Virus record (IMG/VR): IMGVR_UViG_3300006033_000024 | Span: 6,159-70,158 of that record | Reading direction: 5' to 3' (one strand) | Length of the DNA stretch: 64,000 bases | Source: a virus | Shown: piece after piece, positions 7,676 through 60,694 of the stretch | Position numbering within the stretch: the stretch's first letter is position 1 | Layout: the number at the start of each line of letters is the position of its first letter | Program-made: the position numbers and the translations under genes | Notes under the pieces: generated by a model | Told to the model about the DNA's origin: nothing | Database searches by the model: none | The model's input: the letters and a program-made list of their open reading frames with translations, nothing else

Positions 7676-7693
7676 ATAAAATATCTATTTTAT
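7676..7693. repeat. ATAAAA-N6-TTTTAT site (spacer TATCTA)
   Basis: Between two fibre genes. Confidence 0.85.
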
Positions 7694-7709
7694 GTGAGGG
7701 GGTGACTTC

Positions 7710-9698
7710 GTGCATGTATTAAAAAACTATCAAAGTGGGCAAAGAGCCAATAATCAACTTGAAGAAATTCCTGCGAGCGCTAAACCACTTGATCTTAATG
7801 CCACCATTAACGAACTTAAGACGTTGGTTGAATGGATGAGAGACCACCCTTCTGGCAATGCCGGTGGTGGCGATTATGATGATAGTGCGTTACAGTCCGC
7901 AATCAGTGATTTGCAAACAGGGAAGGCAGATGTGTCTGATTTGGACTCATTTATTTCGCTCCAGACGGGTGGATCTATTTCGGGTACAAGGGCTGCTGCT
8001 ATAGGGATTAATAATGAACTATCTGGCAGTGACTCTTTCGCGACTGGTGATTTAAATATCGTTTCTGGATTAAATGCATTTGCATCTGGGTTTAACAATA
8101 AAGCAGAGGGTGCGTATTCTCATTCAGAAGGGATGCAAACTAGGGCTACGAATATTGCGTCTCATTCCGAAGGGGATCATACGAGTTCTTTTGGATACGC
8201 CGCGCATGCCGAAGGAACATTGACGTTCGCATCTGGCACCGCCGCGCATGCGGAAGGCTATGGAACCGATGCCTCTGCAAATAATGCCCACGCTGAGGGC
8301 GCTAGCACATACGCCCAAGGCGTACAATCGCATGCAGAGGGTCTTGATACGGTTGCGTATGGACAACAATCTCATGCCGAGGGCGAGGGTACGATAGCAC
8401 AAGGTGAAAACCAACATGCTGGGGGTCAATATAATATTGCCAACGGGTCGGCTAGTTCGCATAGTCCAACTGATTATGTTTGGATTATTGGAAACGGGAC
8501 TGACGACGCAAATCGGTCAGATGCCGCGGCGTTACAATGGAACGGCGTGTTAAAGGTTGTTGATTTAGAATCATTCGATGGTACCAAAGGATTACTTTTA
8601 GATACCGATAAAACAAAGTTAGACAATTTGGTTATCCCCGATCAACTTAGTGATTTGACAGATGATGAAACTCATCGTTTGGTCACCGATACCGAAAAGT
8701 CAACGTGGAACGCAAAACAACCTGCGATGGGTTCAGATGATAATTATGTCACAGATGCAGAAAAAGCTGCGCTACATGCACATAGCAACAAAACTGCATT
8801 AGACGCAGTTAGTGGCACCAATACGGGCGATCAAACGTTAAGTGGCTTGGGAGGTGTGGCTGCTAATGTCGCTATTACCGGTGCAACCAAAACCAAGGTG
8901 ACATATGATTCAAAAGGGTTGGTTACTGGTGGATCCGATGCGACGACTGTCGATATTGCAGATTCTGCGAATAAACGTTATGTCACCGACGCACAACTTA
9001 TTGTTATAGGGAATACTTCGGGTGCGAATAGTGGGGACGAAACCACTTCGACCATTAAAACTAAGTTGGGAATTACAACGCTTAGTGGTTCTAATACTGG
9101 TGATAACGCCGTCAACTCTTTATATAGCGGATTGGCGACGTCGAAACAAGATACATTAGTGAGTGCTACGAATATCAAAACAATCAATGGTTCGTCAATC
9201 TTAGGTGGTGGCGACTTAGTAGTTTCTGGTGGGTCTGCCCCGTTTGCTATGTATCGTTTAACCGCACCATTTTCAAATTCGACAACGACGTTGCAAGACG
9301 TTACGGGTTGGGCATTCCCTGTTACGGCAGGGAAAATATATAGGATTGAAATTATCGCCTTATATCAGACGAATACAACTACCACCGGTGGTAAACTTGG
9401 TTTTTATTTGCCAAGCGGAACTGGTGCGGTCGTTGGCTATCTTGAGGGTGGAATTTCGTCCGCAACCGTAGCGACAGAGTTAAAGGCACCGATTTACGCT
9501 ATTGGTGCAAGTAACTTGGCAGGAAGTTTTTTATTAACCTCTGGAGTAAACGTTATCAATACACCCCATCATATTGATGGCTCGTTGATTTTTAATTGTG
9601 CTACATCTGGCGAGTTCCGCGCCCAATGGTCTGGCGAAGCTGCTACCGCCGCACAACTTAATACAAATAGTGTTTTATTGGTTACGGTTTTGAATTAA
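7710..9698 (+). CDS. Tail fibre with YadA-head-like 14-aa repeats
   Basis: About nine (S/A)H(A/S)EG repeats at 14-aa spacing, IIGNGTDDANRSDA neck, KQDTLVSATNIKTING fibre motif. Confidence 0.8.
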   Translation: MHVLKNYQSGQRANNQLEEIPASAKPLDLNATINELKTLVEWMRDHPSGNAGGGDYDDSALQSAISDLQTGKADVSDLDSFISLQTGGSISGTRAAAIGINNELSGSDSFATGDLNIVSGLNAFASGFNNKAEGAYSHSEGMQTRATNIASHSEGDHTSSFGYAAHAEGTLTFASGTAAHAEGYGTDASANNAHAEGASTYAQGVQSHAEGLDTVAYGQQSHAEGEGTIAQGENQHAGGQYNIANGSASSHSPTDYVWIIGNGTDDANRSDAAALQWNGVLKVVDLESFDGTKGLLLDTDKTKLDNLVIPDQLSDLTDDETHRLVTDTEKSTWNAKQPAMGSDDNYVTDAEKAALHAHSNKTALDAVSGTNTGDQTLSGLGGVAANVAITGATKTKVTYDSKGLVTGGSDATTVDIADSANKRYVTDAQLIVIGNTSGANSGDETTSTIKTKLGITTLSGSNTGDNAVNSLYSGLATSKQDTLVSATNIKTINGSSILGGGDLVVSGGSAPFAMYRLTAPFSNSTTTLQDVTGWAFPVTAGKIYRIEIIALYQTNTTTTGGKLGFYLPSGTGAVVGYLEGGISSATVATELKAPIYAIGASNLAGSFLLTSGVNVINTPHHIDGSLIFNCATSGEFRAQWSGEAATAAQLNTNSVLLVTVLN

Positions 9699-9719
9699 AA
9701 GAACAACAAGAAAGAAGGG

Positions 9720-10691
9720 ATGATTTTGATACAGACACCATATTTTTTCGAATACCACCTTTGCGTATCGGGTAGTGAAATTGCGAACTCGCACAAAGGG
9801 ACAAAGAATCTAGATTTTGCATGTGCGAAAGATCGTAATATAGTCGCACCGTGTGATTGTAAAGTTGTTGGCATTTATCATTCAACGCAATCCAACGCGA
9901 ACACCGTTTGGTTTGAATCGTTGGATGAAGTAAAAGGCCCTGCGTTTACGGATTTCATCTATTGGATGATGTCACATATGTATGACGCCGATTTTAAAGC
10001 CATGAGTTATTTTGTTGGCAAGATCTTTAAACGTGGCGAATACATGTATAAAGAGGGTGCGCAAGGAAACGCAAGTGGCGTTCATGTGCATTTCGGCGTT
10101 GGACGTGGTAAATATGTCGCACCGGGTTGGTATAAAACATCTTACAACACTTGGATGCCCAGAAATGGCGTTCATGCGTGGGAAGCGTTCTATTTGAAAC
10201 CCGGCACGGCGATCGTTAAGGGTAGTGATGAGGGGTATGCCTATAAAGATAAATGGGTTTATGCTACCGTTCCTGCGACCATGATGACCGTTGCGAATAA
10301 AGGGGTTAAGACAGGCGATGTTGCTGTCAATGTGCGCGAACAAGCATCTACGATGTATCCGGTCATTGCACAATTGCCGAAGAATCAAGTGATCGATATT
10401 TTAGAAGAGTCTACAAATATCGTTGACGGTTTCAAATGGGTCAAGGTATATATCAATGGACATTATGGATATAGCGCAATGGTCGCATCCGTATCCATTG
10501 TGGATGTATTGACACCCGAACAGATCTTGCAGAAAAAGTTGGACGAAGCCAATGCGACGATTGCGAAACAGAATTCGGCGATTGCATTAAAAGATGCTTC
10601 GATCGCTACGTTAACGCAACAAAACGTGGCTTTGGATACACAAGTTAAGTCGTTTTCGGCAGTTACGAAAACATTGTACGAAAAGAAATAG
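9720..10691 (+). CDS. Endolysin (M23-like peptidase, SH3b domain, coiled coil)
   Basis: HKGTKNLD (HxxxxxD) and GVHVHFG (HxH) zinc motifs; VNVREQAS..W.KV..GY SH3b. Confidence 0.8.
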   Translation: MILIQTPYFFEYHLCVSGSEIANSHKGTKNLDFACAKDRNIVAPCDCKVVGIYHSTQSNANTVWFESLDEVKGPAFTDFIYWMMSHMYDADFKAMSYFVGKIFKRGEYMYKEGAQGNASGVHVHFGVGRGKYVAPGWYKTSYNTWMPRNGVHAWEAFYLKPGTAIVKGSDEGYAYKDKWVYATVPATMMTVANKGVKTGDVAVNVREQASTMYPVIAQLPKNQVIDILEESTNIVDGFKWVKVYINGHYGYSAMVASVSIVDVLTPEQILQKKLDEANATIAKQNSAIALKDASIATLTQQNVALDTQVKSFSAVTKTLYEKK

Positions 10692-10703
10692 AGGGACAAA
10701 AAT

Positions 10704-14477: not shown

Positions 14478-14687
14478 ATGTCACTAAGATACCAGACCCA
14501 AATCCCAAATTCGGAATCCGATCAAGGGATTGACAATTATGATTACAGTGCTTTATTGCGTTTGATCCGTGCAAGGGCGGGGTTCGTTTTTGCGAACACT
14601 GAATTTGACAACTTGCAGAATCAGATCAATGCGATTGAAGCAACCAGTTTGATTACGTTGACCGACCCAGAAGAGGTGCTTACATAA
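14478..14687 (+). CDS. Small hypothetical protein
   Basis: RBS AAGGTGG; TAATG coupling to the next gene. Confidence 0.6.
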   Translation: MSLRYQTQIPNSESDQGIDNYDYSALLRLIRARAGFVFANTEFDNLQNQINAIEATSLITLTDPEEVLT

Positions 14688-15274
14688 TGGAACAAATCAC
14701 TTATTATGTCAACACACAAACAGTCACGGGGAACCCACCCTACGAGGGTGATCACCAAACGATTAAACTTGTGCTTGACTTTACTGAAACTGACTATGAA
14801 GATTGGCCGAAATTCGTAGACTTTATTATTCCGGGCAACGTCCCCAGTTTTAAATCTTTGGGTTCGGACACAATCGTTAATTATATAATGACGAACGCCG
14901 AATTAAAAACAGGAACGTTGTACATCCAACCTTATGCGAAACTTCCTACTGGTGAAACCAAACGTTTTTCGATCTATAATTTAAAGGTCGATGATTCGTT
15001 GGTTGTCATTACGGATATGTCTGTAATAACGCAAGACATCTTGGATTTTCTAAATACGCAACTTAATTTAAAGGTTGATAAGGTTGCAGGCAAGAGTTTG
15101 ATTGCCGATTCTGCCATAACGGACTTAACCGATGGCAACGACACTTCGTTACACGTCCATGATTCAAGATATTACACGGAGAGCGAAGTCGATGGTCTAC
15201 TTGGAAACAAGGTGGACAAGATTACCGGATACGGATTGATTTCGTTAACAGATCCTTTGGAGGTTTTAACATGA
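14687..15274 (+). CDS. Baseplate-upper (BppU-like) / fibre-anchor protein
   Basis: YEGDHQTIKLVLDF N-terminus; HVHDSRYYTESEVD and KVDK fibre motifs. Confidence 0.55.
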   Translation: MEQITYYVNTQTVTGNPPYEGDHQTIKLVLDFTETDYEDWPKFVDFIIPGNVPSFKSLGSDTIVNYIMTNAELKTGTLYIQPYAKLPTGETKRFSIYNLKVDDSLVVITDMSVITQDILDFLNTQLNLKVDKVAGKSLIADSAITDLTDGNDTSLHVHDSRYYTESEVDGLLGNKVDKITGYGLISLTDPLEVLT

Positions 15275-15276
15275 AA

Positions 15277-15294
15277 ATAAAATACTCGTTTTAT
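15277..15294. repeat. ATAAAA-N6-TTTTAT site (TACTCG)
   Basis: Just upstream of the 780-aa fibre gene. Confidence 0.85.
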
Positions 15295-15316: not shown

Positions 15317-17659
15317 ATGGCTAAATATATTAAGACAATGGTGGATGCCAACGGGGATACAATTTATCCACGCACACGGGCAAATGCCGTCACGATGTCG
15401 GATGGTGCAACCAATTTAGAAACCAAGATCAACTCCAAAGTTGATAAGACACAAAAAGTCAATACAAAGGCTTTGTCTGGCGATGTTACCCTTAACGCCG
15501 TTGATATTCCAAATACCCCTGCGGGTGGTATTGCAGCGACTAACGTCCAAACTGCGATCGACGAGTTGGACACCGAAAAGGTACGTAGGGCCGGAACATC
15601 TACAATTTCCGGTGTAAACGCAGAAGCAATCGGAAGTGGTCAAATCGCAAGTGGTGTAAACTCTTTTGCCGAAGGTGCGAATAACCGAGCATTGGGTGAC
15701 TTTTCCCATGCCGAAGGATACGATACCGAAGCATCCAATAACCAAGCACATACCGAAGGGGCTCAAACCTTTGCACAAGGGCAACAATCTCACGCAGAAG
15801 GATTGGGTACGGTTGCGTATGGTAAGGCACAACACGCAAGTGGAAAGTGGAATGTCATTCAAGGAAACCCAAGTGTTGCCAATCCAACCGATCATGCCTA
15901 TATTGTCGGAAACGGAACGGACGATGCCAACCGATCCAACGCTCTTGCCTTGCAATGGGATGGGAAGTTGCTTATTACCGATGTTGAAAGTTTTGACGGT
16001 ACGAAGCATCTGATCACAACCGATGAAAAGTTGAAGTTGTCCGGGATTGAAGCCGGTGCAGAAGTCAACAACCTTACCGATGTGAACGCACTTGACTTGA
16101 CCGATGGTGGCGATACCACGTTGCATACCCATGATGGACGGTACTACACCGAAACCGAAGTCGATACCAAAGATGCACTCAAAGCCGACAAGGTAATGGC
16201 AACGAACTTAGTAACGAATGGGGATTTCTCAAATGGTACGACAGGGTGGAGTGCGGGAAATGGCACTTTGGCAGTAACCAATGGAAAAGCGTTAGTCACA
16301 GGAACGGGGGCAAGTTCAAGTGTTTTGTTGATTCCGTCTGCGGGAGGGGCATCGGCTCTACTCAATGATAAAGTGTACATATCGGCACTTGTAAAAGTTC
16401 CAACCGAAGCTGATTATGTTGCATTACAACTTTATAATAATGCCTCTACGGTCGAAATCCCTTCAAGTTTAGGGAAGCCAATTGTTGACACAAGGGTTTC
16501 TACCATATACACACTAACGGCTGACCGACCCATTTTAAGAGGTGGTGTGCGTTGTTATTTCCCAAGTGCCGCTATCGCAAATGGGAAAATCTTTGAAGCA
16601 GATAATATCTTGTTAATCAATCTCACTCAAATCTTCGGCGCTGGTCTTGAACCGTCCAAAGAGCAAATCGACCGATTGCTTTCCATCTATCCGAACTCAT
16701 GGTTCAACGGAACATCTGAACTTGCGAACGTGAAGCAGTTGTGGAATGAAAAGGTTGACCGACTTCTTGCGACAAACTTGGTGACCAATGGGGATTTCAG
16801 CAATGGTACGACAGGGTGGTCTATGTCGGGTGCTTCCACAGCATCGGCATCGAATATTATGACTTCAACAGGCGATGGAACATCGACTATGTTTATTGGA
16901 ACACACGCAACCTCGTTTGTTTCAGCCGTAGGGAAAAAAGTTTATGCAAAATTAAAGGTTCGATTCAGAACAGCATTACCCAATCAATTTGAATTTATTG
17001 TAGATGGAATTACGGCAGGAACAAACCAAATTTTAGTAAAAACAGGGTTGGTTCTTGATACTTGGTATGACATGAGTTTTGTGGCAACACAACCGTCTGA
17101 TGTTTTGGGTTTTATAGCGTTGAAAACAGTTGCGACATATTCAAGTTCTGGTGTTGCATTAAACGCACTTATAGATTTCCAATACGTTCTTGCTCTCGAC
17201 CTAACATCCATCTTCGGTGCAGGGAAAGAACCGACCGCCGTTCAAATGGATAACCTACTCGCCAACTTCCCAAACTCATGGTTTAACGGAACGGTGGAAT
17301 TAGCAAGTCTGCTGAACATTCTGAACACGAAAGCAGATAAGACACAGGAAGCGTGGATTACACCGACATTGTTGAATGGTGCGACAAATGTTAGCGGTTA
17401 TGATGTTGGCTATTTTAAGACGTCTATTGGAATGGTTGCATTGAGGGGAAGAATCAATGTAACACAAGCAGGCACTTCAACATTTTTGTTACCAGCAGGA
17501 TATAAGTCATTAAGAAATTTAGCATTTCCTTTAATAAATATATCAACTAATACAGTAACAGCAAGACTTGTTTTAAGTGGTGGGAATAGTGCTGAATTTT
17601 ATGGGACGATACCAGCATCTTATTCATTGGATGGAATCATATTCAAGGCAGAAGCGTGA
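15317..17659 (+). CDS. Multi-domain tail fibre: YadA-head-like repeats plus two tandem carbohydrate-binding-like modules
   Basis: HAEG repeats, HTHDGRYYTETEVD, two NLVTNGDFSNGTTGW..IFGAGxEP modules, C-terminal WITPTLLNG..LPAGY domain. Confidence 0.82.
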   Translation: MAKYIKTMVDANGDTIYPRTRANAVTMSDGATNLETKINSKVDKTQKVNTKALSGDVTLNAVDIPNTPAGGIAATNVQTAIDELDTEKVRRAGTSTISGVNAEAIGSGQIASGVNSFAEGANNRALGDFSHAEGYDTEASNNQAHTEGAQTFAQGQQSHAEGLGTVAYGKAQHASGKWNVIQGNPSVANPTDHAYIVGNGTDDANRSNALALQWDGKLLITDVESFDGTKHLITTDEKLKLSGIEAGAEVNNLTDVNALDLTDGGDTTLHTHDGRYYTETEVDTKDALKADKVMATNLVTNGDFSNGTTGWSAGNGTLAVTNGKALVTGTGASSSVLLIPSAGGASALLNDKVYISALVKVPTEADYVALQLYNNASTVEIPSSLGKPIVDTRVSTIYTLTADRPILRGGVRCYFPSAAIANGKIFEADNILLINLTQIFGAGLEPSKEQIDRLLSIYPNSWFNGTSELANVKQLWNEKVDRLLATNLVTNGDFSNGTTGWSMSGASTASASNIMTSTGDGTSTMFIGTHATSFVSAVGKKVYAKLKVRFRTALPNQFEFIVDGITAGTNQILVKTGLVLDTWYDMSFVATQPSDVLGFIALKTVATYSSSGVALNALIDFQYVLALDLTSIFGAGKEPTAVQMDNLLANFPNSWFNGTVELASLLNILNTKADKTQEAWITPTLLNGATNVSGYDVGYFKTSIGMVALRGRINVTQAGTSTFLLPAGYKSLRNLAFPLINISTNTVTARLVLSGGNSAEFYGTIPASYSLDGIIFKAEA

Positions 17660-18051: not shown

Positions 18052-18060
18052 CATAAAATT

Positions 18061-18098
18061 AAAAGGTATGATCCATAAAAAGACCATACCTTTTTTTT
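18061..18098. terminator. Probable bidirectional terminator at the strand switch
   Basis: AAAAGGTATG..CATACCTTTTTTTT inverted repeat between convergent gene blocks. Confidence 0.75.
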
Positions 18099-18102
18099 AG
18101 CG

Positions 18103-18120
18103 ATAAAATAGTAATTTTAT
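18103..18120. repeat. ATAAAA-N6-TTTTAT site (TAGTAA)
   Basis: Just after the terminator ending the + strand block. Confidence 0.85.
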
Positions 18121-18129
18121 TTGAGCATT

Positions 18130-18218
18130 TGTAGGACGCGTGTAAATGTTGGGACATGTATTTATATTGGTTTGTACCAAACATTCGTCCATAAGTCTGA
18201 AAATAAGCGTAGAACAAG
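18130..18218 (+). repeat. Dispersed ~65-bp element, divergent copy C
   Basis: TGTAGGACG..GTAAATGTTGG..CGTCCATA then GTCTGAAAATAAG, shared with copy B. Confidence 0.55.
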
Positions 18219-18219
18219 A

Positions 18220-18813
18220 TTATGCCATGTTTAAGTCTTCCGGCATGAAGTAATGTTCTCTGATCAACTGTTTGCGATAAGATTGGATAAACGCCTTGAT
18301 CCGCATATTCACGCCACCACGCGTAATCCCAAACCTGTCTGCAATTTCTTGGTATCCAAGTTCGTCAATATAATAATCTAACACCATCTGGGCAGTATCC
18401 TTCATGGGATGATTTTGAATGTCGTGAACAACCTTTTCAAAGATGATATGATTCAATGAATCAATGGCCGGCGTCTGTAGATCTACAAAGAAATTGCCAG
18501 ATCCTTCTTCGCTATCTTCTTTGCCGGAATACTTCTGAAACGAATGGGTTTCACCGTCACGTTCGATAGTCTTATGTTTACGCAGATAGGTGTCTATAAA
18601 CCGACGGTAGATTGACATCCACAAGAAGGTTTCAATTTTGTTATTCTTTTCCGGATCATAATCGGATAACGCTTTCCACAACCCGATCCGTCCAACTTGC
18701 ATCAATTCATCGTATTCATCCAACCAATATAGATTCTTACGCTTGATGACGCTGCCGATCAACGGTTCGTACTTCTCAATCAATTCATTTTGTTCTTCTG
18801 GTGTGTAGTTCAT
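18220..18813 (-). CDS. Phage sigma-70 family RNA polymerase sigma factor
   Basis: Region 2 (DELMQVGRIGLWKALSDYD) and region 4 HTH (YQEIADRFGITRGGV). Confidence 0.88.
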   Translation of the reverse strand: MNYTPEEQNELIEKYEPLIGSVIKRKNLYWLDEYDELMQVGRIGLWKALSDYDPEKNNKIETFLWMSIYRRFIDTYLRKHKTIERDGETHSFQKYSGKEDSEEGSGNFFVDLQTPAIDSLNHIIFEKVVHDIQNHPMKDTAQMVLDYYIDELGYQEIADRFGITRGGVNMRIKAFIQSYRKQLIREHYFMPEDLNMA

Positions 18814-18836
18814 ACATTCACTCTTTCTATCAAGTC

Positions 18837-49343: not shown

Positions 49344-49353
49344 TTTCCATGTA

Positions 49354-49578
49354 TTATTTTCCCTCTGTATAGATAATGATGGTTTCGATCCAATGGTTCT
49401 TGTGACCAGACAAGCCCGACATTACCGGATTATCTATGTTCTTACGTTCCAAAGATACGACTTCAATATCTGGATGCTTTTCAAACCAAGCGTTAATCGC
49501 TTCTTCGGTAGCGTCGATCATAATTTTTAACTTATATTTCATTTCGCCTCGTGCGTACACTTTACATTTTGTACGCAT
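49354..49578 (-). CDS. Hypothetical protein (real start probably MKYKLK)
   Basis: RBS GAGG; IN.W..HPDIEVV pattern. Confidence 0.5.
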   Translation of the reverse strand: MRTKCKVYARGEMKYKLKIMIDATEEAINAWFEKHPDIEVVSLERKNIDNPVMSGLSGHKNHWIETIIIYTEGK

Positions 49579-49583
49579 AAATC

Positions 49584-49840
49584 TGCAACGATACCCTAAT
49601 CATCGTTGTATTTTGCAACGATTTTTGCAACGGTAAATCTATCGTTGCAAAAAAGTGTAGAATTACGCATTTATCTGCAATGGGATAAACCCTATTTAAT
49701 AGGGATTATATTGCACATTAACCCTATTTAATAGGGGTTATAGGCAATTAAATGCCGATTATAGGCAATTAAATGCCGATTATACCCATATGGGTGCAAT
49801 ACAGAACATTGATACGCATATTATACCCTATCGGATATAA
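49584..49840. repeat. Patchwork of short palindromes and tandem repeats
   Basis: TGCAACG(A/G)T-like x5 in both orientations, CCCTATTTAATAGGG x2, TTATAGGCAATTAAATGCCGA x2 in tandem, ACCCATATGGGT, TTATACCCTATCGGATATAA. Confidence 0.85.
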
Positions 49841-49843
49841 TTA

Positions 49844-50080
49844 TTACTTAAACCAATTCTCCGGATTTTCACTCTCGTATCCACACGCGATATACATTTC
49901 AATAATTTTCTTTGCGTCTGGATCATAGTTAATGTTCTGATAAACTTCACCGATCGTTTTACACATATAAGATAGCATAACGATTAGATCCGACGTCGCT
50001 TTCGTGCTATGCGCAAATGGTTTCTTTTCACCGGGCAAATACCATTCAACATCGCCCTTGGTTTGGCTATTTTTGGACAT
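49844..50080 (-). CDS. Hypothetical protein (start MSKNSQ)
   Basis: Overlap-coupled to the upstream membrane protein gene. Confidence 0.5.
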   Translation of the reverse strand: MSKNSQTKGDVEWYLPGEKKPFAHSTKATSDLIVMLSYMCKTIGEVYQNINYDPDAKKIIEMYIACGYESENPENWFK

Positions 50081-50537
50081 ATTTATTTGCCTTTGATTTA
50101 ACCCACGGACGAATTTCGGTCTTGAACAAGAAATACAGTAGATCAGTCGCATTACCGACAAACACCATCGCCCAATACCATTGATAGGCATCTGCATTAC
50201 TTATTCCCAACAAAGTTGCAATCGGAAACACCGGCAACGCAAGAACGAATTCAATGATTATAAAGAAGAAAGCCAAAACATCGTGCCAATATTGACCAAA
50301 CATCTTAACTGTAGCGTCAAACGAATCAGAATATAGTAACTGATATGTATTAGCGTAAATGATCAAAATGTGCAAAACCATAAGTGGCAAAGACACAACT
50401 GGCGCACCAATCCATTTGAAAAACCAATAAGCAAGTACCAAGTCAACCAGATATGAAATAAATTTCCATACCAAATTCACCCTTTTATTCTTAAACATAT
50501 GTATTTCTTTTTTCATAACCCCTCCATAAGCAACCAT
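50067..50537 (-). CDS. Multi-pass membrane protein
   Basis: About four hydrophobic helices; RBS GGAGGG before MKKEIH. Confidence 0.65.
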   Translation of the reverse strand: MVAYGGVMKKEIHMFKNKRVNLVWKFISYLVDLVLAYWFFKWIGAPVVSLPLMVLHILIIYANTYQLLYSDSFDATVKMFGQYWHDVLAFFFIIIEFVLALPVFPIATLLGISNADAYQWYWAMVFVGNATDLLYFLFKTEIRPWVKSKANKYVQK

Positions 50538-50575
50538 ATCAAGTTGCTTTTCGTTATAGCAACCAATTTAAGTTG

Positions 50576-50992
50576 CTATTTAAACAATTCTTTCATTTTG
50601 GCAATTTGTATTTCTCTTTCGCGTCCCAATTCAAGAAGTCTTTCTGCTTTGATTCTCTCTCGTTCATCTTCCCTACGAGCAGCTTCGGCTTTTAAAGATT
50701 CAATGTATAACTCAAATTCATCTTTCCATGGCCCGTCAATCAACCAACCATAACTTTCAGTCCAACCACGATCGCCATCAACCATCCCATATACATTAAG
50801 CCGATTATCCCCATTAAAAGGTTTAGACGGATCATAAACATCAATACAAAACGTTTTACCTCTGGCGTGTTGCCCTAATGTGAAGATAAAATTTCCGTGG
50901 CGATATTCTTTAAAGCCACTCTTAGTTAAATCGCCATAGTAACCTAAAACAGCGTCGTAAATAATGTCAAAATACTCTCTTGCACCCTTCAT
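50576..50992 (-). CDS. Hypothetical protein
   Basis: RBS AGGAGG. Confidence 0.65.
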   Translation of the reverse strand: MKGAREYFDIIYDAVLGYYGDLTKSGFKEYRHGNFIFTLGQHARGKTFCIDVYDPSKPFNGDNRLNVYGMVDGDRGWTESYGWLIDGPWKDEFELYIESLKAEAARREDERERIKAERLLELGREREIQIAKMKELFK

Positions 50993-51014
50993 TTTACATC
51001 CTCCTATTTAGCAC

Positions 51015-51032
51015 ATAAAACTTCTGTTTTAT
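51015..51032. repeat. ATAAAA-N6-TTTTAT site (CTTCTG)
   Basis: Intergenic. Confidence 0.85.
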
Positions 51033-51122
51033 TCCTTATAATTTCGTGGATAACGTACATTAGATTTTCTTGGTAAAGATCCCATTAAGAAAATCAAAAT
51101 AACACAAATGACGATCTCCATC

Positions 51123-51656
51123 CTATTTCTTCAACTTCGATTCGCCTAACAAATCTTCAAGCTGTTTATCAAGCGCCCACCCCAAACCATTAACCGGTTT
51201 TTTCTTTTTCTTAAACAATGACTTTATCCATCCGGTGAATCGAAGGAAGTAATACTCTCTCAATTGCCACGTCCAGTTGATTCTTGACCACAATATTTCC
51301 CAACGCGTTACCGGTGGCATAGGGGTAATAACGTTGTAGAACACGGCTAGATCAATAATGTCGCCATCAAACCTATCAGAATCATACCAATCTAACGAAT
51401 CGTAATACGACAGCAACTCGTCTAATTTGTGTAACTTGGCAGCTTCGGTAAAAGCCATCTGCCAACCATAAGATCCACTCGCATAAACCCAAGTTTCCTC
51501 ATCATTGTAACCTAAGTTACTGCCATAAGTACCCTTACCCAAGTGTTTTTGCAACCCATACCGTAACGTTTGCAAGAACGACTTTGTGATCATCGCCTTA
51601 TATTCTTCTGGGATACTATACTCGATTGTTCCTTCGTCAGTTATTGGCATACGCAC
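51123..51656 (-). CDS. Hypothetical protein
   Basis: 177-aa ORF in operon context. Confidence 0.6.
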   Translation of the reverse strand: MRMPITDEGTIEYSIPEEYKAMITKSFLQTLRYGLQKHLGKGTYGSNLGYNDEETWVYASGSYGWQMAFTEAAKLHKLDELLSYYDSLDWYDSDRFDGDIIDLAVFYNVITPMPPVTRWEILWSRINWTWQLREYYFLRFTGWIKSLFKKKKKPVNGLGWALDKQLEDLLGESKLKK

Positions 51657-51933
51657 CCACTACCTTTTGTTCGGTCACATCAATGCGATCACAAGTATCA
51701 AACGAAAACCCATCATCCAATAAAACGGTCAACCGATATTTATTGTTATCTGTCGGTTGAATGGCATATTCATTCGTCCAAATCTTAACACTACTCTCAA
51801 AGAACCCATCATTTTGACAGTAAATGTAATACTTATAGGTCGCCTTTTTATCTGCTAACGGATCCTTGCTGCTACATCCGAATAAGAAAATCGCTAGCAA
51901 TACAACAAGTAATTTTTTCATGTTGCCCCTCAT
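51637..51933 (-). CDS. Putative lipoprotein
   Basis: MKKLLVVLLAIFLFGC lipobox-like signal peptide. Confidence 0.65.
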   Translation of the reverse strand: MRGNMKKLLVVLLAIFLFGCSSKDPLADKKATYKYYIYCQNDGFFESSVKIWTNEYAIQPTDNNKYRLTVLLDDGFSFDTCDRIDVTEQKVVGAYANN

Positions 51934-52145
51934 TTATATCTCTCCTTATTCGCTTTGATTTTCTTTCGATAATTTAAATCTAATAATGTTAAAGCAACTA
52001 CAGCTGCGACCACGATTATAACCAATAATGCAATTAGCCCCCATATTCCAGAGTGCTGCGCATATAGCATAAAAAGAGAAAACAGAGTAGCAGTAACGAG
52101 TACTCCAAAAACCAAACCTACGTTCTTCAAAATAATTTTTAACAT
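51930..52145 (-). CDS. Two-TM membrane protein
   Basis: Two hydrophobic helices and a basic tail; RBS AGGAG. Confidence 0.6.
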   Translation of the reverse strand: MLKIILKNVGLVFGVLVTATLFSLFMLYAQHSGIWGLIALLVIIVVAAVVALTLLDLNYRKKIKANKERYK

Positions 52146-52154
52146 TTTGTTCTC

Positions 52155-52331
52155 CTATAAAACTTTCGTTTCTTTATTTTCTTCTTCGATCACGCAAATA
52201 ACCCCAACAGGCTTGTATTTACCGTTATAACTCATCAAAAGATTGTCAATCTGAACCGAATCCGGTTCTTTTCCGACGCCAAATATAGAGGTTAAATTTA
52301 TTTTAATTCCATTAGCAACATACAATTTCAT
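52155..52331 (-). CDS. 58-aa ORF (not in ORF track) carrying the tail-fibre LTSIFGxGKEP motif
   Basis: MKLYVANGIKINLTSIFGVGKEPDSVQIDNLLMSYNGKYKPVGVICVIEEENKETKVL; RBS AGGAG 7 nt upstream. Confidence 0.7.
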   Translation of the reverse strand: MKLYVANGIKINLTSIFGVGKEPDSVQIDNLLMSYNGKYKPVGVICVIEEENKETKVL

Positions 52332-52340
52332 ATCGAACTC

Positions 52341-52706
52341 CTATAAAACTCTCGTTTTATCTTTTGGTTGAAATCCATACCGATCCATGCGAACGCTTTC
52401 AATACATATACCGAAGATCCAACGCAATTCTTCGCGATTGTAAGGTTTAGTCATATACGACGCCCGGAACGGATATTTATACCATTCAATCTTCAATCCG
52501 GTCGGTTTATATTCAAAATTTGGCAACGGATCGTTTTCGTCCGACCAATTATAGGGACGAATCGCGAACGTGTCGTTTTCAAACCCTTTTCCGTGCGAAT
52601 TCATGCCATAGGCGTCCAAGCCACAAACTTTTAAAAGGTTGTGCCAATAAAGTTCCATTACCAAGTCACGATCCACAAGATGATCATACTTATACATACT
52701 GTTCAT
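52341..52706 (-). CDS. Conserved-looking phage protein bounded by two palindrome sites
   Basis: FENDTFAIRPYNW..PNFEYKPTGLKIEWYKYPFR; RBS GAGGT. Confidence 0.7.
   Translation of the reverse strand: MNSMYKYDHLVDRDLVMELYWHNLLKVCGLDAYGMNSHGKGFENDTFAIRPYNWSDENDPLPNFEYKPTGLKIEWYKYPFRASYMTKPYNREELRWIFGICIESVRMDRYGFQPKDKTRVL
52343..52360. repeat. ATAAAA-N6-TTTTAT site (CTCTCG); 2-mismatch copy at 52157-52174
   Basis: Encodes a gene C-terminus, followed by AGGAG. Confidence 0.85.
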
Positions 52707-52722
52707 TATTTACCTCTTGCAG

Positions 52723-52740
52723 ATAAAACTGCGATTTTAT
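52723..52740. repeat. ATAAAA-N6-TTTTAT site (CTGCGA)
   Basis: Abuts a stop codon. Confidence 0.88.
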
Positions 52741-53025
52741 TTATATGAGATCGTTGCGATCTGCCCACTCCCAAAAATTACGCAACAAAGACAACAATAG
52801 CGGAATCAAAAGGATGAGAAACACAAACCACAAAATCGAACCAATCTGGCTCCCTAGAACGCTAACCAACCAATCTCCACATAAAAGCACAATCGCAATA
52901 GAAACAAAAAAGCCACCAACATTAGCAAAATAGAACAATACAAATTTCATCATCTTAATATAATCATCAAATATTTTTTTCATTGTGTTTTTACCTCTAT
53001 TCTCCCCGATCAAAATGATCGGCAA
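52741..53025 (-). CDS. Two-TM membrane protein (real start probably MKKIFD)
   Basis: Hydrophobic helices. Confidence 0.55.
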   Translation of the reverse strand: MPIILIGENRGKNTMKKIFDDYIKMMKFVLFYFANVGGFFVSIAIVLLCGDWLVSVLGSQIGSILWFVFLILLIPLLLSLLRNFWEWADRNDLI

Positions 53026-53617
53026 GTTTACCGTTTTTCATACGAACATACTTGCAAATCTGACCGTTGATGTTGATTACAAACCCCTCAACGTTACGAC
53101 CAACCTCTTGGGTATACTGATCGTATAAATAGTTCAACGCACCAATGTTCAAGTCCTCGTACCCAGCTTCCGGCAAAACCACCGGAACATGTTCGATAAA
53201 ACTTGGCGTCCAATCTTCTTGAAAAGAATAGTGAAACAAGTTAGGATCATACTTTAAGTTGGAAACTTTAAGGGAAATATCGACGTTGCCTTTGGCGAAC
53301 ATGAAGAATCTATTATTGCCAAAGTCGTATTTAAGTTTTCCCATGCCAATCCACTCACCCCAGATAGCACTACCATCATTCAATGAGGTTAACAGGCTTT
53401 CGCCATATTCTTTTAACCAACCATATAACCCCTTGTACAAAACAGGTTTTGCGTCTTCAATCTCGCTTAGCGTAAACACATTGCTTCTGGTTGCAATATA
53501 AAGCGTGTCACCTAATTTAAAAAACCCAAGGTTACTTCCGTCTAGTTTTTCTGTAATGATGATATTCGGATTCAACCCAATCCGAACCGTCTTGGGATAT
53601 AACTCTTTTTTGATCAT
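52997..53617 (-). CDS. RNA ligase (Rnl2-type nucleotidyltransferase domain)
   Basis: YPKT, TEKLDGSN (motif I), WGEW, EGFV, KY; RBS GGAGG. Confidence 0.8.
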   Translation of the reverse strand: MIKKELYPKTVRIGLNPNIIITEKLDGSNLGFFKLGDTLYIATRSNVFTLSEIEDAKPVLYKGLYGWLKEYGESLLTSLNDGSAIWGEWIGMGKLKYDFGNNRFFMFAKGNVDISLKVSNLKYDPNLFHYSFQEDWTPSFIEHVPVVLPEAGYEDLNIGALNYLYDQYTQEVGRNVEGFVININGQICKYVRMKNGKLADHFDRGE

Positions 53618-53627
53618 GTGTTCCTCC

Positions 53628-53645
53628 ATAAAACCCTTGTTTTAT
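53628..53645. repeat. ATAAAA-N6-TTTTAT site (CCCTTG)
   Basis: Between the MTase and the RNA ligase, followed by GGAGG. Confidence 0.88.
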
Positions 53646-53661
53646 TTTTTAATGCAAAATA

Positions 53662-54774
53662 TCAATTCTTATAAAATACATATACGCCCTCTGATTTCGG
53701 CTTATCAATACCGTTATCATCTTTATGACCAGATCCTTTTCTTGTTTGTAATTTCATTTCAAGTTTTTCCACAAAATCAAAACCAACCTCTTTACTTGCT
53801 TCAATCCATCTATCAACATATTGAACCTTTTTATTTCCAACATTGAAATCGGCTATGTTGACCGCATAGAACCGATTATGTTTCAACATCCCATAAATAT
53901 TTTGTATTGTGGGCTTAACATATCCGGCTATCCAAGATTCAATATCGCCAAACTTAATATAGCACTGCGTATCTTCGTCGGAATAGGACTCTAAATTGAA
54001 ATAAGGTGGGCTGCTAAACGCAAAATCTGCCGTTAGTGGATGGTAATTGATGTTTTCGCTACCGGAACACAATACTTTAAAAGAGTTTTTGCGCCCAGTA
54101 ACCGATTCGATGTATCCACCTAATACCTTTAGGTTTTCATATGTTTCGGTACACGGATCGACTCCGAAATATTTGTAATTGTTTTTGCTTGTTAATGCAC
54201 CCAACATACGCCCACCGAAACCACACGAATAGTCAAAGATAACCCCGTTTTGGGGGCAATACTTCTCATAAATCGACTTAGCCTTCATAGGTGGAAAATT
54301 TGTGGCAACGTTACCACCAATTAACCTTGAGTTACGATATAACCCACTATAAATATTCCGTAATCTTTCATATGTCAAAGCGAACCTAATTGTTTTTTTA
54401 AGTTTATGATCATCATAGAATCTATCGTACATAGAGTTGCCCTTGGCGCCCTTGCACTGGACTTGGTGTAAATTCTTGAACAGCAACATACAAACATACT
54501 GCCCAGCATTACTTTTTTCGTCAACCACCTTGTTCAACTTGACATCCTTACCAATACATTTGACAATCTCTTTTTTAATTCCATCTTCATTAAAATAATA
54601 TATGGGGAAAATGTTTTTTGATCTTACAACGTTAAAGATTTTCTCAACCACTTCGTCCTTTGCCGCATCATCCAACAAGTTAAAGTCATCCGGTGAAATG
54701 ATGTCGATTTGATTCATAACATCTTCATATCCGGTAGACGTTTCTGTTGGACTTGTATAATCCCAATTAAACAT
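53662..54774 (-). CDS. DNA amino-methyltransferase (N4C/N6A-type)
   Basis: DYSCGFGGR SAM-binding motif; FSSPPYFNLE catalytic motif. Confidence 0.85.
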   Translation of the reverse strand: MFNWDYTSPTETSTGYEDVMNQIDIISPDDFNLLDDAAKDEVVEKIFNVVRSKNIFPIYYFNEDGIKKEIVKCIGKDVKLNKVVDEKSNAGQYVCMLLFKNLHQVQCKGAKGNSMYDRFYDDHKLKKTIRFALTYERLRNIYSGLYRNSRLIGGNVATNFPPMKAKSIYEKYCPQNGVIFDYSCGFGGRMLGALTSKNNYKYFGVDPCTETYENLKVLGGYIESVTGRKNSFKVLCSGSENINYHPLTADFAFSSPPYFNLESYSDEDTQCYIKFGDIESWIAGYVKPTIQNIYGMLKHNRFYAVNIADFNVGNKKVQYVDRWIEASKEVGFDFVEKLEMKLQTRKGSGHKDDNGIDKPKSEGVYVFYKN

Positions 54775-54806
54775 TTGACATCCCCCTTGTTTTATTTACT
54801 GTTATC

Positions 54807-54835
54807 ATTATACTATAAATTAGATCAATCGTCAA
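54807..54835 (-). promoter_or_regulatory. SigA-type promoter for the methyltransferase
   Basis: TTGACG-17 bp-TATAAT. Confidence 0.78.
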
Positions 54836-54946
54836 GAATCAATCGGTAAAGCGTGACGCCAACATCCGGTTATAGAACATCGACATACACGCAGCTAGGA
54901 TCCGAACCCATATTCTGTTCCTGCTTTTACGCATAATGTTTCTTTA

Positions 54947-55351
54947 TTACAATGTTTGACCTAATTTTAAGAACTCTTTAACGTTTATAAAATTGTTTAA
55001 CGCAGAAAAGAACGGCATAAGGTTCACCGAATCTGCCCAAGGCGCGACCTCAAATTCATAGCCCATCCTAAATGCAGTCCGACAATTAAAGTAGTGCGCC
55101 TTAACATCAAGACACGCCCAAGACAACTTGCCATCTTCGAACTCAAAGTCAAAGTGATCAACAATTTCCAATTCTTTTACTAATGAAATACCACGATCGT
55201 TAAACTCTTTTAGTGCATCCACCAAGAACCCCTCAAGCATCCACAAATCATAGATGGTCAAATCATGCCAATCACCTACAACTTCTTTGAATCGTTGAAT
55301 TGTCGCTCTCACGTTAATCCTCCTCTGCGTAGCACGTTTTGTAGTACGCAT
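54947..55351 (-). CDS. Hypothetical protein
   Basis: ORF; RBS GAGGAGG before a GTG start. Confidence 0.55.
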   Translation of the reverse strand: MRTTKRATQRRINVRATIQRFKEVVGDWHDLTIYDLWMLEGFLVDALKEFNDRGISLVKELEIVDHFDFEFEDGKLSWACLDVKAHYFNCRTAFRMGYEFEVAPWADSVNLMPFFSALNNFINVKEFLKLGQTL

Positions 55352-55601
55352 CCACCGCCCAAATAAACTTATCCCAATCCGGGATTAGAAATAGTTCGCC
55401 ATCACGATCAATCAATCCTTGTCGAACCAACAGTGTGAATTCACCCACAAACGCACGGTAATGATTTACTGAAAGAACGACTTCCAACAACGTAGTGGGA
55501 TCAATTTTTAAATTGACTTCCCCCTTGAAGCCATCATAATCGCCTACCGGATACTTCGCAACGCCATCTTTAAGAACACTATCAATTAATTGTTTTGTCA
55601 T
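55314..55601 (-). CDS. Hypothetical protein
   Basis: 95-aa ORF. Confidence 0.55.
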   Translation of the reverse strand: MTKQLIDSVLKDGVAKYPVGDYDGFKGEVNLKIDPTTLLEVVLSVNHYRAFVGEFTLLVRQGLIDRDGELFLIPDWDKFIWAVDAYYKTCYAEED

Positions 55602-55607
55602 GGTTGA

Positions 55608-55853
55608 CTATGCCTTGTAAAAAATCTCTTCGATTTCGTCAACGCGTTTTTGTTTTAATCGAATGATTGCATTTGTTTCATCTGCGGTCAAGATGCAAAT
55701 TCTGACCCGTGAATTAGGCATACCCCAAACGGAATCATCGTAAGCGATATAAACACCACCCTTAAATCTCGCCGCCAACGTGTCAATATCATCCAACAAT
55801 CTTTTCTTTTCGCCCATCAGCTTTTCAAGTTCTTCAAATTTTCCCAGTTCCAT
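55608..55853 (-). CDS. Small coiled-coil protein, paralogue of 55895..56134
   Basis: RBS AAGGAG; IC.L..DE..A.I..K pattern. Confidence 0.6.
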   Translation of the reverse strand: MELGKFEELEKLMGEKKRLLDDIDTLAARFKGGVYIAYDDSVWGMPNSRVRICILTADETNAIIRLKQKRVDEIEEIFYKA

Positions 55854-55880
55854 TTTTTCTCCTTTATTGGAATGATCCAC

Positions 55881-55898
55881 ATAAAATACAGATTTTAT
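55881..55898. repeat. ATAAAA-N6-TTTTAT site (TACAGA)
   Basis: Between two paralogous genes. Confidence 0.85.
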
Positions 55899-56134
55899 AA
55901 CGAATCCAAAGTCTTTTTAATGTCAGCGATTGACGATTCTTTATATTGAATAAGAGCATCAATCTCTTCGTCGCTTAAGTCACAAATAAGATCTAATCCA
56001 CTACCCATGTAGCTGGGACGTCTATGAACACCCAAAGACCGTCCTTTGTTGCCAGAAAGCGACTGTACTTCACGCTGCAATTGCGTTTTTCTCTGTTCCA
56101 ACAAAATAATCTGATCAATTACCACTTGATTCAT
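55895..56134 (-). CDS. Small coiled-coil protein, paralogue of 55608..55853
   Basis: RBS GGAGGAGG; ICDLSDEEIDALIQYK. Confidence 0.6.
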   Translation of the reverse strand: MNQVVIDQIILLEQRKTQLQREVQSLSGNKGRSLGVHRRPSYMGSGLDLICDLSDEEIDALIQYKESSIADIKKTLDSL

Positions 56135-59784: not shown

Positions 59785-60309
59785 TCATAACACAATCTCA
59801 CTTGTAGCAACTTCAATTAAATCGTCGCTTTTCACTTCTTCACGGCAACCCAAGACCATAGCGTAACCTAACAAGTTATTAATATGAGCGCCGGTACACC
59901 GACCATGGGATACCGTCAACGTATTCGTTCCCATGACATCAATCAGTCGTTTGATCATCTTTGCAGAAAACATACATCCACCGACACGAACAAATTGATT
60001 CTTATCTTTGATCGCCTGTTTCAAGATGTCAACATCGACTACCCAATGACTTGGATTTTCACGTTCAGAACGATCCAACCAATCAGTATACAAATTTTCC
60101 ATTGCCGGATAATTGCCGTCTTGTGGTTCAACGTGTGGTAAATCCGGCAAATCATCATTCAGATAAAACACCATGTACGAATCCGTGATAATCATACGAT
60201 CGTATCCACTGATCTTTTGGATAGCAGCCTTGCGTAAAATCGGACGTGCCGTAGAGATTTTATTCATCCAACTTAATAGCAACTTCGTGCGTTGTTTTGC
60301 GTTACTCAT
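59785..60309 (-). CDS. Hypothetical protein with weak sliding-clamp-like pattern
   Basis: RPIL..TDSY..GNYP resembles one DnaN domain; RBS GAGGA. Confidence 0.5.
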   Translation of the reverse strand: MSNAKQRTKLLLSWMNKISTARPILRKAAIQKISGYDRMIITDSYMVFYLNDDLPDLPHVEPQDGNYPAMENLYTDWLDRSERENPSHWVVDVDILKQAIKDKNQFVRVGGCMFSAKMIKRLIDVMGTNTLTVSHGRCTGAHINNLLGYAMVLGCREEVKSDDLIEVATSEIVL

Positions 60310-60311
60310 AT

Positions 60312-60623
60312 TTAATCCTCGCTTTCTTTTTGTAACCGATAAATCTCTTGACTTAAGAAACGTGCCATAGCATCATATTCGCTTTCAATCGGATCGTTCT
60401 TACGGTCAAACTCTTTGAACAAATCGTAAATGCGAACAGCTTGACACCAAACAACATCTTCCGAATCATCATAGCCTAAATACGCACTGACATTTTGGCA
60501 ATATGTTTTGTGTGATTTGCTATAAGACAAACGCTTAGCATTTTCGATATGATTAGCAATATCCACCGCCATACAATGTACGCCGTAAAAATATTCGGCT
60601 TGATCATATTGTTTTCTATTCAT
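60312..60623 (-). CDS. Hypothetical protein
   Basis: RBS AAGGAGG; promoter upstream. Confidence 0.6.
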   Translation of the reverse strand: MNRKQYDQAEYFYGVHCMAVDIANHIENAKRLSYSKSHKTYCQNVSAYLGYDDSEDVVWCQAVRIYDLFKEFDRKNDPIESEYDAMARFLSQEIYRLQKESED

Positions 60624-60648
60624 GTTATCCTCCTTGTCCTACCCCGGT

Positions 60649-60677
60649 ATTATACCATTTTTAAGGGTTATTTGCAA
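60649..60677 (-). promoter_or_regulatory. SigA-type promoter whose -35 abuts a palindrome site
   Basis: TTGCAA-17 bp-TATAAT, extended -10. Confidence 0.68.
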
Positions 60678-60694
60678 TAAAAACCGTATTTTAT
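60677..60694. repeat. ATAAAA-N6-TTTTAT site (ACCGTA)
   Basis: After a stop codon, abutting a -35 box. Confidence 0.85.

Follow-up and report, generated by a model that had tools for sequence, protein, structure and literature searches.

Organization of the locus and the repeated motif

We analyzed a 64,000-nucleotide stretch of viral DNA (the window), which corresponds to bases 6159-70158 of the 70,158-base virus record IMGVR_UViG_3300006033_000024 from IMG/VR (the contig, or G000), estimated to be 57% complete. The subject of this report is an 18-bp gapped palindrome, ATAAAA-N6-TTTTAT (ATAAAANNNNNNTTTTAT), which occurs in 20 perfect copies in the window compared with 0.04 expected from 100 dinucleotide-preserving shuffles (maximum, 1). 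Genes are on the + strand up to approximately 18.05 kb and on the - strand from 18.2 kb on. The contig begins within a tail module and head genes are absent from it, and the replication module at 18.9-27 kb encodes a DnaE-type polymerase, a primase-helicase, a PD-(D/E)XK nuclease, an SSB and a Sak4-like ATPase. The nearest named phages are only about 44% identical to this phage in DnaE. Megablast of window 18800-24100 against a phage collection returned no match, and a DnaE-based search of IMG/VR returned no confirmed relative. The perfect sites and one near copy are listed below in window coordinates.

7676-7693, ATAAAA-TATCTA-TTTTAT, among + strand tail-region genes, 5 nt past the stop of 7015-7671 and 17 nt ahead of the start of 7710-9698
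15277-15294, flanked by the + strand genes 14687-15274 and 15317-17659
18103-18120, in the convergent gap of the + and - strand modules, right after a hairpin with a T-run
30162-30179, upstream of a sigma-factor gene (open reading frame [ORF] 29065-30186, the true start of which is probably just past the site)
32148-32165, ahead of the - strand C5 DNA methylase gene 31226-32122 by 26 nt
32181-32198, one-mismatch copy (ATAAAATACTTATTTTAA), 15 nt away from site 32148
33641-33658, its TAA is the stop of 33655-34026, and AGGAGG abuts it ahead of the radical-SAM gene 32746-33627
38316-38333, 3 nt past the stop of 38336-38683
38682-38699, directly between 38699-38902 and 38336-38683, the start ATG overlapping TTTTATG
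40973-40990, between metK (40992-42146) and 40275-40961, AGGAGG abutting
42158-42175, between 42178-43437 and metK, AGGAG abutting
44218-44235, in the roughly 300 nt that part 44374-45282 from 43674-44072
46991-47008, abutting the stop of 47008-47715
48324-48341, near +5 of the transcript predicted from a - strand sigma-A-like promoter (TTGCAA-17-TGnTATAAT, 48381-48353), 11 nt past its -10 box
49326-49343, upstream of 48974-49309
51015-51032, upstream of 50576-50992
52343-52360, upstream of 52155-52331
52723-52740, between 52741-53025 and 52341-52706
53628-53645, with the N6/N4-type methylase-like gene 53662-54774 on one side and the RNA-ligase gene 52997-53629 on the other, GGAGG abutting
55881-55898, its TAA is the stop of 55895-56134; upstream of 55608-55880
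60677-60694, sharing its last base with a - strand sigma-A-like promoter (TTGCAA-17-TGnTATAAT, 60677-60649), as the first T of the -35 box

The hairpin with its T-run beside site 18103 (aaggtatg...catacctttttttt, 18060-18100) parts the two convergent modules and reads as a + strand terminator.

An earlier note on this DNA had listed 20 perfect palindromes by their starts; our rescan returned exactly that number at exactly those positions, and the rough chance figure given with them (0.03) is close to the shuffled value. Allowing one mismatch added only two window sites (9661 and 32181) where 1.41 were expected and, since near-miss copies barely exceed expectation, the 12 fixed bases are essentially invariant in this phage. 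The two degenerate copies named in the note carry one mismatch (32181) and two (52157, ATAAAACTTTCGTTTCTT). The whole contig holds 23 perfect sites, every one with a spacer of 6 bases. The same arms separated by 3-5 or 7-10 bases gave no match in the contig, and the free half-sites ATAAAA (59) and TTTTAT (73) were not enriched there on their own. As the note had claimed, all 20 window spacers differ (and so do all 23 in the contig), and the replication module and proximal tail genes are free of sites, with no copy in 1-7675 or 18121-30161.

Read in gene orientation, the sites come after a stop codon and ahead of a ribosome-binding site (RBS) or a start codon. Their placement at gene junctions, also part of the note, was borne out: an ORF of at least 40 aa starts no more than 30 nt downstream of 22 of the 23 contig sites, and an ORF of that size ends within -30 to +7 of the motif start at 17 of them. 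A Shine-Dalgarno-like word follows TTTTAT by 0-2 nt at 7/23 contig sites, and the TAA within ATAAAA is the stop of the upstream gene in three cases. Pairs of sites do bracket metK (40992-42146) as well as 38336-38683 and 52341-52706.

Spread among phages and prophages

When IMG/VR was scanned for copies of the motif with AGGAG behind them, at least 113 stretches matched, several of which carry dense clusters of the bare motif. Five other IMG/VR records (G001 to G005) contain 53, 41, 21, 34, and 17 perfect copies, respectively, over their whole length and no copy of a reversed control. By a wide margin, ATAAAA with a gap of 6 bases leads the gapped 6-mer palindromes in all five. The controls, five palindromes matched in composition and one direct repeat, gave 0-2 matches, apart from 8 matches of the direct repeat in G005. 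The G003 record is only 71% complete. The G+C content of these records is 29-36% compared with 41% in the window, and the proteins that they have in common with the window are few and distant. A blastn search with a motif-rich IMG/VR locus found only transposase and short matches. Of the 189 perfect sites pooled from the contig and these five records, 141 come after the end of an ORF and 136 stand before the start of one. A stop codon lies inside the 5' arm at 55 of them, with the RBS following or sitting in the loop.

One of the records, G004, is a provirus that is 100% identical to part of a Paenibacillus chitinolyticus contig (G008:C30). In the 6.4-Mb Paenibacillus genome, 37 of 39 copies lie within a single 123-kb prophage stretch (21.7-144.3 kb of one contig), and the control pattern occurs three times. 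We considered a host regulator and its regulon as the reason for the sites and rejected it: the host chromosome outside the prophage carries the motif only at control level, and a host regulon is unlikely because 37/39 copies sit in one prophage. A second Paenibacillus genome harbors a mosaic relative of the G004 prophage (G006p).

Bacillus phage Thrax1, a Tyrovirus, has seven copies in the 100 kb examined. Its sites have directional flanks, CTGT or CTAG before and CAA(G) after, and one copy (locus position 39050) lies inside the tape-measure gene. Single copies were found in TR-TP1 (complete genome), in MT835481 and in phage 949 (first 50 kb); MT835481 is a weak negative control, as its record may be without the early region. 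Tyroviruses are temperate (PMC9703825), and the motif-bearing relatives are prophages (G004) or temperate Tyroviruses. Of note, the commonest gapped palindrome in Clostridioides phage pCD1602_4 (80-130 kb) is TTAAAA-N6-TTTTAA, with five copies in 50 kb, which may be a sister motif differing in the outer base.

We found no published description of the motif in the literature searched by its spellings, although supplementary tables may list more sites. The main text of the Tsamsa genome paper does not mention palindromes, motifs, promoters or intergenic elements. The available parts of the Tyrovirus paper (PMC9703825) mention no palindromes, promoters or intergenic elements, and the word "motif" refers there to protein motifs only. 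The putative attP reported behind gp50 of Tyroviruses was considered as the same element and set aside, as its sequence differs.

Symmetry of the site and recognition as duplex DNA

Variation within the motif is symmetric. Among 131 one-mismatch variants in the six genomes, 22 have A>G at position 3 and 35 have T>C at position 16; these two positions are symmetry-related, both variants are found on the mRNA-sense strand, and G004 contains six double variants, ATGAAA-N6-TTTCAT. Hence, the half-site is ATRAAA on either strand, which fits a symmetric dimer on duplex DNA.

An AU-rich intercistronic mRNA hairpin involved in translational coupling, processing or RNA stability would also lie where these sites lie. 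They are transcribed within polycistronic units, the 55 sites with a stop in the 5' arm have their RBS after the stem or in the loop, and a seventh pair is gained in G000 and G002, where the first spacer base tends to be T/C and the last A/G. However, the minimum free energy of the RNA stem was only -0.9 to -1.8 kcal/mol in five of the six sites folded, and no Rfam family matched at gathering thresholds over the whole window. The T>C variant at position 16, the commonest one, argues against an RNA stem because it would create an A.C mismatch, and there was no compensatory pattern beyond the symmetric one. It is the sequence that is conserved and not the pairing, and sites are also present in convergent gaps and upstream of promoters. 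We consider an RNA element scarcely credible. Taken together, the symmetric variants and the weak RNA hairpin point to double-stranded DNA read by a dimer.

The conserved arms are 6 bp long in this phage and 6-7 bp across G000, G001, and G003 to G005, and no consistent asymmetric flank was found in G000. In G002 they reach about 14 bp, AAAACCAC-ATAAAA ... TTTTAT-GTGGTTTT. Many of the 41 sites of G002 lie in the longer palindrome AAAACCAC-ATAAAA-N6-TTTTAT-GTGGTTTT, either extended arm of which also occurs alone, and its downstream word (G/T)(T/G)GGTTTTTAA is found again in G005 and G001. All 189 spacers are distinct within their own genome and none is palindromic.

Sites and promoters

A layout recurs across the six genomes in which a near-consensus sigma-A promoter has its -10 box ending 7-17 nt before a site:

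Promoter followed by site: window 48324; G002 49042; G003 57738, 60402, and 65493

Window site 60677, in turn, abuts a -35 box, and one Thrax1 spacer is the word TTGAAA, which reads as a possible -35 box 17 nt ahead of a TATAAT box. Judged by their sequence context, the promoter-adjacent copies hold operator-like positions. Most copies are purely intercistronic. The window also has two 12/12 sigma-A consensus promoters, TTGACA-17-TATAAT, at 29068-29040 and 27386-27358 (- strand), with no motif site near; the former is upstream of the recombinase gene 28131-29015 and the latter upstream of 27077-27340.

Could the sites themselves be promoters, or core promoter elements, to which a phage factor (for instance the sigma-like protein of 29065-30186) redirects the host RNA polymerase, with transcription starting in or just after TTTTAT? 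Their position directly upstream of RBSs and their number (17-53 per genome) are promoter-like, and TAAAAT, a -10-like word made of the arm and a first spacer T, is present at 95/189 sites. The Sigma70_r2 protein of the contig is itself preceded by a site, and a directional word, GTGGTTT/TGGGTTTTT, lies downstream in G002, G005, and G001 alike. A perfect palindrome, however, would fire both ways. Moreover, a number of sites have the RBS as their spacer (GGAGAG, GAGGAT, GAGGAG) or a start ATG that overlaps TTTTATG, so the motif often lies within the mRNA, which must then begin upstream of the site; this argues against a promoter starting inside the motif. No Sigma70_r2 protein was found in G001 to G005, several sites stand a few bases past canonical promoters, and no conserved element lies at a fixed distance on either side. 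A promoter function therefore appears improbable.

Mosaic joints and spacer conservation

The prophages G004 and G006p consist of shared blocks at 68-96% identity parted by unrelated DNA. We compared their block ends (blocks of at least 200 bp) with a strand-consistent gene set for the 82-kb leftward (early) arm of G004, in which 54 of 145 junctions (approximately 37%) bear a site. Of 52 block ends, 27 fell at site-bearing junctions, 18 at site-less junctions and 7 inside genes. Sites were present at 25/43 breakpoint junctions vs. 29/102 non-breakpoint junctions (odds ratio 3.5, Fisher p = 0.0012), and the enrichment persisted when only junctions of at least 12 nt were counted (odds ratio 3.1, p = 0.004). 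An earlier and cruder ORF set, now superseded by the refined one, had given 22 ends with a site, 22 without and 8 intragenic, with no clear enrichment. The intervals between conserved anchor sites are often mostly unrelated DNA (aligned fractions 0.14-0.41), and G004 55165-55619 provides an example of a single gene between two conserved sites with unrelated neighbors.

The spacers are conserved in this pair. At 14 of 14 paired boundary sites the spacer is kept (79/84 bases), whichever side the homologous block is on. Over all aligned DNA, identity was 91.9, 94.2, and 74.1% at codon positions 1, 2, and 3, 84.8% in other intergenic DNA, 96.4% in the arms and 94.0% (141/150) in the spacers. The spacers are thus conserved above other intergenic bases (p = 0.00045); alignment ends may inflate the 94.0% figure somewhat, and the comparison of 79/84 boundary bases is independent of them. 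The result comes from one genome pair: a genus set of seven Paenibacillus genomes contained no further close relative for breakpoint statistics, and there was no other moderately diverged pair among the loci compared.

Breakpoints enriched at sites would also be seen if the sites were passive linkers, that is, junction islands with no dedicated reader that let relaxed homologous recombination build viable mosaics. A recombination module that could drive this is present (Sak4-like ATPase, SSB and PD-(D/E)XK nuclease, 24.7-27 kb). Six-base arms, however, are too short for homologous pairing, and 12 invariant bases across distantly similar phages of 29-41% G+C need direct selection, as linkers would drift. 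Although the PeSL elements of T4-type phages show that junction repeats can mediate shuffling (PMC2839356), we hold passive linkers to be very improbable here.

The contig encodes two proteins of the tyrosine-recombinase family:

28131-29015, - strand, Xer-like tyrosine recombinase of 294 aa, with R, K, HxxR, H, and Y aligning with XerA/XerD; a candidate binder of the site
4334-5353 of the contig (upstream of the window), second tyrosine-recombinase-family gene, between tail genes and the tape-measure gene

Homologues of the second hold the same place in G001, G002, G004, G005, and MT835481, and this position before the tape-measure gene is the one reported for Tyrovirus gp50 (PMC9703825) and for Lactococcus 949-type phages. 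Aligned to XerA, XerD and XerC-like structures, both proteins keep the catalytic residues R, HxxR, H/W, and Y. Members of the family were found in 7/8 motif-positive genomes, the sole DNA-binding family that widespread. PF00589 matches were present in four of the five other motif-rich records, with none in G003 (21 sites, in a record 71% complete). Tyrovirus genomes are described as having three such proteins each, one of them within the structural module (PMC9703825).

One of these recombinases (28131-29015 or the tail-module protein) might bind the arms and exchange strands across the 6-bp spacer, in a heterospecific site-specific recombination that we consider possible but unlikely. Sites within one genome could not recombine because their spacers all differ, and the genome would stay intact; the same junction in a co-infecting relative would have the same spacer, and modules between two shared sites could be swapped, much like engineered recombinase-mediated cassette exchange. 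The fuller version of this idea, a natural recombinase-mediated cassette-exchange grid in which the spacer is the address of the junction and module exchange is programmed and order-preserving, is a little more doubtful again. Inverted arms flanking a 6-bp spacer match the typically palindromic targets of tyrosine recombinases (PMC10516654), and the catalytically intact recombinases, their wide distribution, the approximately 14-bp arms of G002, the breakpoint enrichment, the unrelated DNA between anchor sites and the non-palindromic spacers, unique within each genome and kept even beside a non-homologous flank, are all in its favor. Against it, arms are 6-7 bp in G000, G001, and G003 to G005, 18 of the 52 block ends lie at site-less junctions, some sites overlap promoter elements, and the distinctness of the spacers is near chance (about 1.6 duplicate pairs expected, 0 observed). 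Motif and recombinase also come apart: TR-TP1 has a homologous recombinase (29% identity) and a single site, and PF00589 has no match in the incomplete G003 with its 21 sites. Assembled contigs showed no recombination product, and the spacer conservation comes from the single pair above.

For near relatives of the window, we aligned contigs from four public runs to window 36001-56000. A contig of X2, a run approximately 95-99% alike, is without 48966-49324 and rejoins at the edge of site 49326, and another X2 contig keeps only 23 bases round site 52343 between differences (joints 51924>52338 and 52360>52451). An X3 contig skips 50578-51014 up to the edge of site 51015. These four joint ends at the outer edges of sites 49326, 51015, and 52343 are weak evidence, since the short sides are 22-23 nt and repeats can yield such joints, and a relative may just carry its own site at its junction. 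As the arms are identical, the position of a crossover inside a site is not resolvable. The variable pieces by sites 49326 and 51015 comprise one or two genes and no perfect site, which does not fit a rule of one site per cassette. Neither circles nor site-to-site joints were found in the contigs of the four runs; assembled contigs drop rare forms, so this carries little weight.

The earlier note had read the motif as crossover sites or scars through which gene cassettes are inserted and shuffled. Part of this stands: the sites are real, non-random and at junctions, breakpoints are enriched at them, and a Xer-like recombinase is encoded. The exchange itself does not follow, as no sign of site-specific strand exchange was seen in the contigs, block ends also fall at site-less junctions and, in seven cases, inside genes, the indels are free of sites, the arms measure 6 bp, TR-TP1 has its recombinase with a single site, and some sites lie on or just after sigma-A-like promoters.

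A proposed many-copy operator and its candidate readers

We conclude that the motif is a selected, phage-borne recognition site in double-stranded DNA at gene junctions, common to diverse large Firmicute siphoviruses and over-represented at mosaic joints. For its role, we favor an operator or roadblock in many copies on which a phage regulator acts, the exchange of modules being a by-product, and would put the probability of this at roughly 45%. ATRAAA-N6-TTTYAT would be a protein-binding site on duplex DNA, bound by a symmetric dimer, each subunit of which would read one 6-bp half-site, and dozens of copies would be kept at the junctions of large, mostly temperate Firmicute siphoviruses with a DnaE polymerase. 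Through these copies, a phage-encoded factor could exert genome-wide transcriptional control: bound sites on or just past promoters would act as operators, and those between cistrons as roadblocks, in analogy to the L5 repressor at its stoperators and MrpR at the SPBRE repeats of SPbeta. We infer both the binding and the repressive effect. The 18-bp island may also serve as a preferred joint in module exchange, because the same island stands at many junctions of co-circulating phages. Consistent with this reading, the phages carry many near-identical short sites, confined to the phage genome and located in promoters as well as intergenic spaces. The earlier note had dismissed a dimeric regulator on the ground that most copies are not at promoters; we find an operator at least as well supported as recombination, because regulators with many intergenic off-promoter sites are known (stoperators, SPBRE/MrpR).

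Several observations weigh against the operator. Only 2 of the 20 window sites adjoin a strong sigma-A-like promoter, and six other strong promoter-like sequences, picked from scan lists, have no site nearby. Conservation of non-coding spacers that are unique to each site is not predicted by an operator, yet they are 94% identical vs. 85% for other intergenic DNA and 74% for third codon positions. An identical motif in phages with only 25-50% identity between the proteins that they have in common demands a reader that is conserved as well. Yet, jackhmmer profiling of eight motif-positive and two motif-poor genomes revealed no small DNA-binding family specific to the positives. HTH_3 proteins occurred in only 2/5 records searched. 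An HU-like protein is common, yet it is also found in the motif-poor TR-TP1 and MT835481, as are tyrosine recombinases. The sole conserved DNA-binding candidates are the recombinase-family proteins, and the copies in the contig are catalytically intact, unlike MrpR.

Two other candidates were tried and rejected. A methylase of the N6/N4 family is encoded in all six IMG/VR records but not in G006p or the Thrax1 stretch examined, and 12 specified bases are more than such methylases recognize. Tsamsa, in addition, has been reported to be without base modification. Ribonucleotide reductase co-occurs with the motif but is irrelevant to it.

Other genes of the contig

The contig also encodes a C5 methylase, MetK, two PAPS-reductase-domain proteins, two radical-SAM proteins, a deoxyribosyltransferase, an RNA ligase and a YopX protein. 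Several of these belong to a nucleotide- or DNA-modification-like gene set at 31226-36782, 40992-42146, 44374-45282, and 53662-54774, the members of which are the C5 methylase, a nucleoside 2-deoxyribosyltransferase, the two radical-SAM proteins, the two PAPS-reductase-domain proteins, MetK and a protein of 370 aa, which has an SPPY motif and was tied to N6/N4 methylases by profile searches. This gene content suggests that the DNA of the phage may be hypermodified.

29065-30186, ORF of 373 aa, with guanylate-kinase-like residues 3-74 and a Sigma70 region 2 domain at 197-264; site 30162 falls within its first codons
24104-24760, protein of 218 aa without a Pfam match, with several partial matches of about 60 aa in one G002 stretch

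The first of these may be either a fusion or two separate genes taken for one, and the partial matches of the second suggest a repeated module.

Comparison with known systems

The closest parallels to the operator that we propose are found in temperate phages. The 13-bp sites bound by repressors of the L5 gp71 type number more than twenty and lie in promoters as well as in short gaps between genes, both early and late (PMC9283540). The stoperators of cluster A mycobacteriophages resemble the present motif in that a temperate siphovirus genome has many conserved short sites, both in promoters and between genes. They differ in being 13-bp asymmetric sites read by a monomer in one orientation in phages of Actinobacteria (PMC9283540), whereas the element described here is an 18-bp gapped palindrome in phages of Firmicutes. 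As a perfect palindrome it is not bound to an orientation, and no homologous repressor was found.

MrpR (YopR) has a tyrosine-recombinase fold, is catalytically dead, binds SPBRE and acts as the master repressor of SPbeta; its authors suggested that such recruitment may be widespread (PMC10516654). SPBRE is likewise a repeated intergenic element of a large Bacillus prophage, and the phages studied here also carry 2-3 recombinase-family proteins. However, the SPBRE motif measures 15 bp and gave ten ChAP-seq peaks, located in promoter regions (PMC10516654), and the present motif occurs in 17-53 copies that are mostly intercistronic. Catalytic residues lost from MrpR are retained by both proteins of the contig.

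The PeSL elements of T4-type phages are repeated regulatory sequences bordering small accessory genes, and recombination explains much of the divergence of close relatives (PMC2839356). They consist of a sigma-70-like promoter and a terminator stem-loop, and recombine within a genome to form mini-circles (PMC2839356). The motif, in contrast, is 18 bp long and includes neither promoter nor terminator, and every copy has a different spacer. Correspondingly, 2/20 window sites adjoin a strong promoter-like sequence and the hairpins are weak.

With integron attC, dif and lox sites, Xer and dif included, the motif has in common inverted arms round a short spacer, a place between promoterless co-oriented genes and a tyrosine recombinase in the genome. 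The attC sites are imperfect palindromes of approximately 57-141 bp, used as folded single strands, one per cassette, and need an IntI-type integrase together with attI and Pc; dif and lox occur once per replicon with arms of 11-13 bp. In our case, the 28131-29015 protein is not of the integron type, matching best with XerA/XerD (E-values of 7e-33 and 3e-24) and with IntI4 only over residues 217-281 (E-value of 9e-13), and its gene lies inside an operon, downstream of most sites in the direction of transcription. Nor is there one attC-like site per cassette: the element has 18 bp, 54/145 G004 junctions bear it and gene-sized differences are free of it. A further parallel is provided by the conserved inverted repeats (CIRs) of phiC31, which are bound by the repressor at many intergenic positions in the early region of a temperate phage; their sequence, their repressor and the phylum of the host are different.

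If the sites are operators, they would form a new and easily recognized regulatory system, in which one 18-bp word is spread over up to 53 gene junctions and is common to widespread, little-studied large temperate phages of Bacillus, Paenibacillus and uncultured relatives. If they are instead address-like recombination sites, they would be the first natural system known to us that programs modular phage exchange, and a ready source of orthogonal recombination sites for engineering. Either way, they offer a testable handle on why mosaic joints fall at gene borders. Set beside the systems above, the element is best classed with a known kind, the multi-copy phage operator, as a form that we did not find in the literature searched, and its possible recombinational role would be new.

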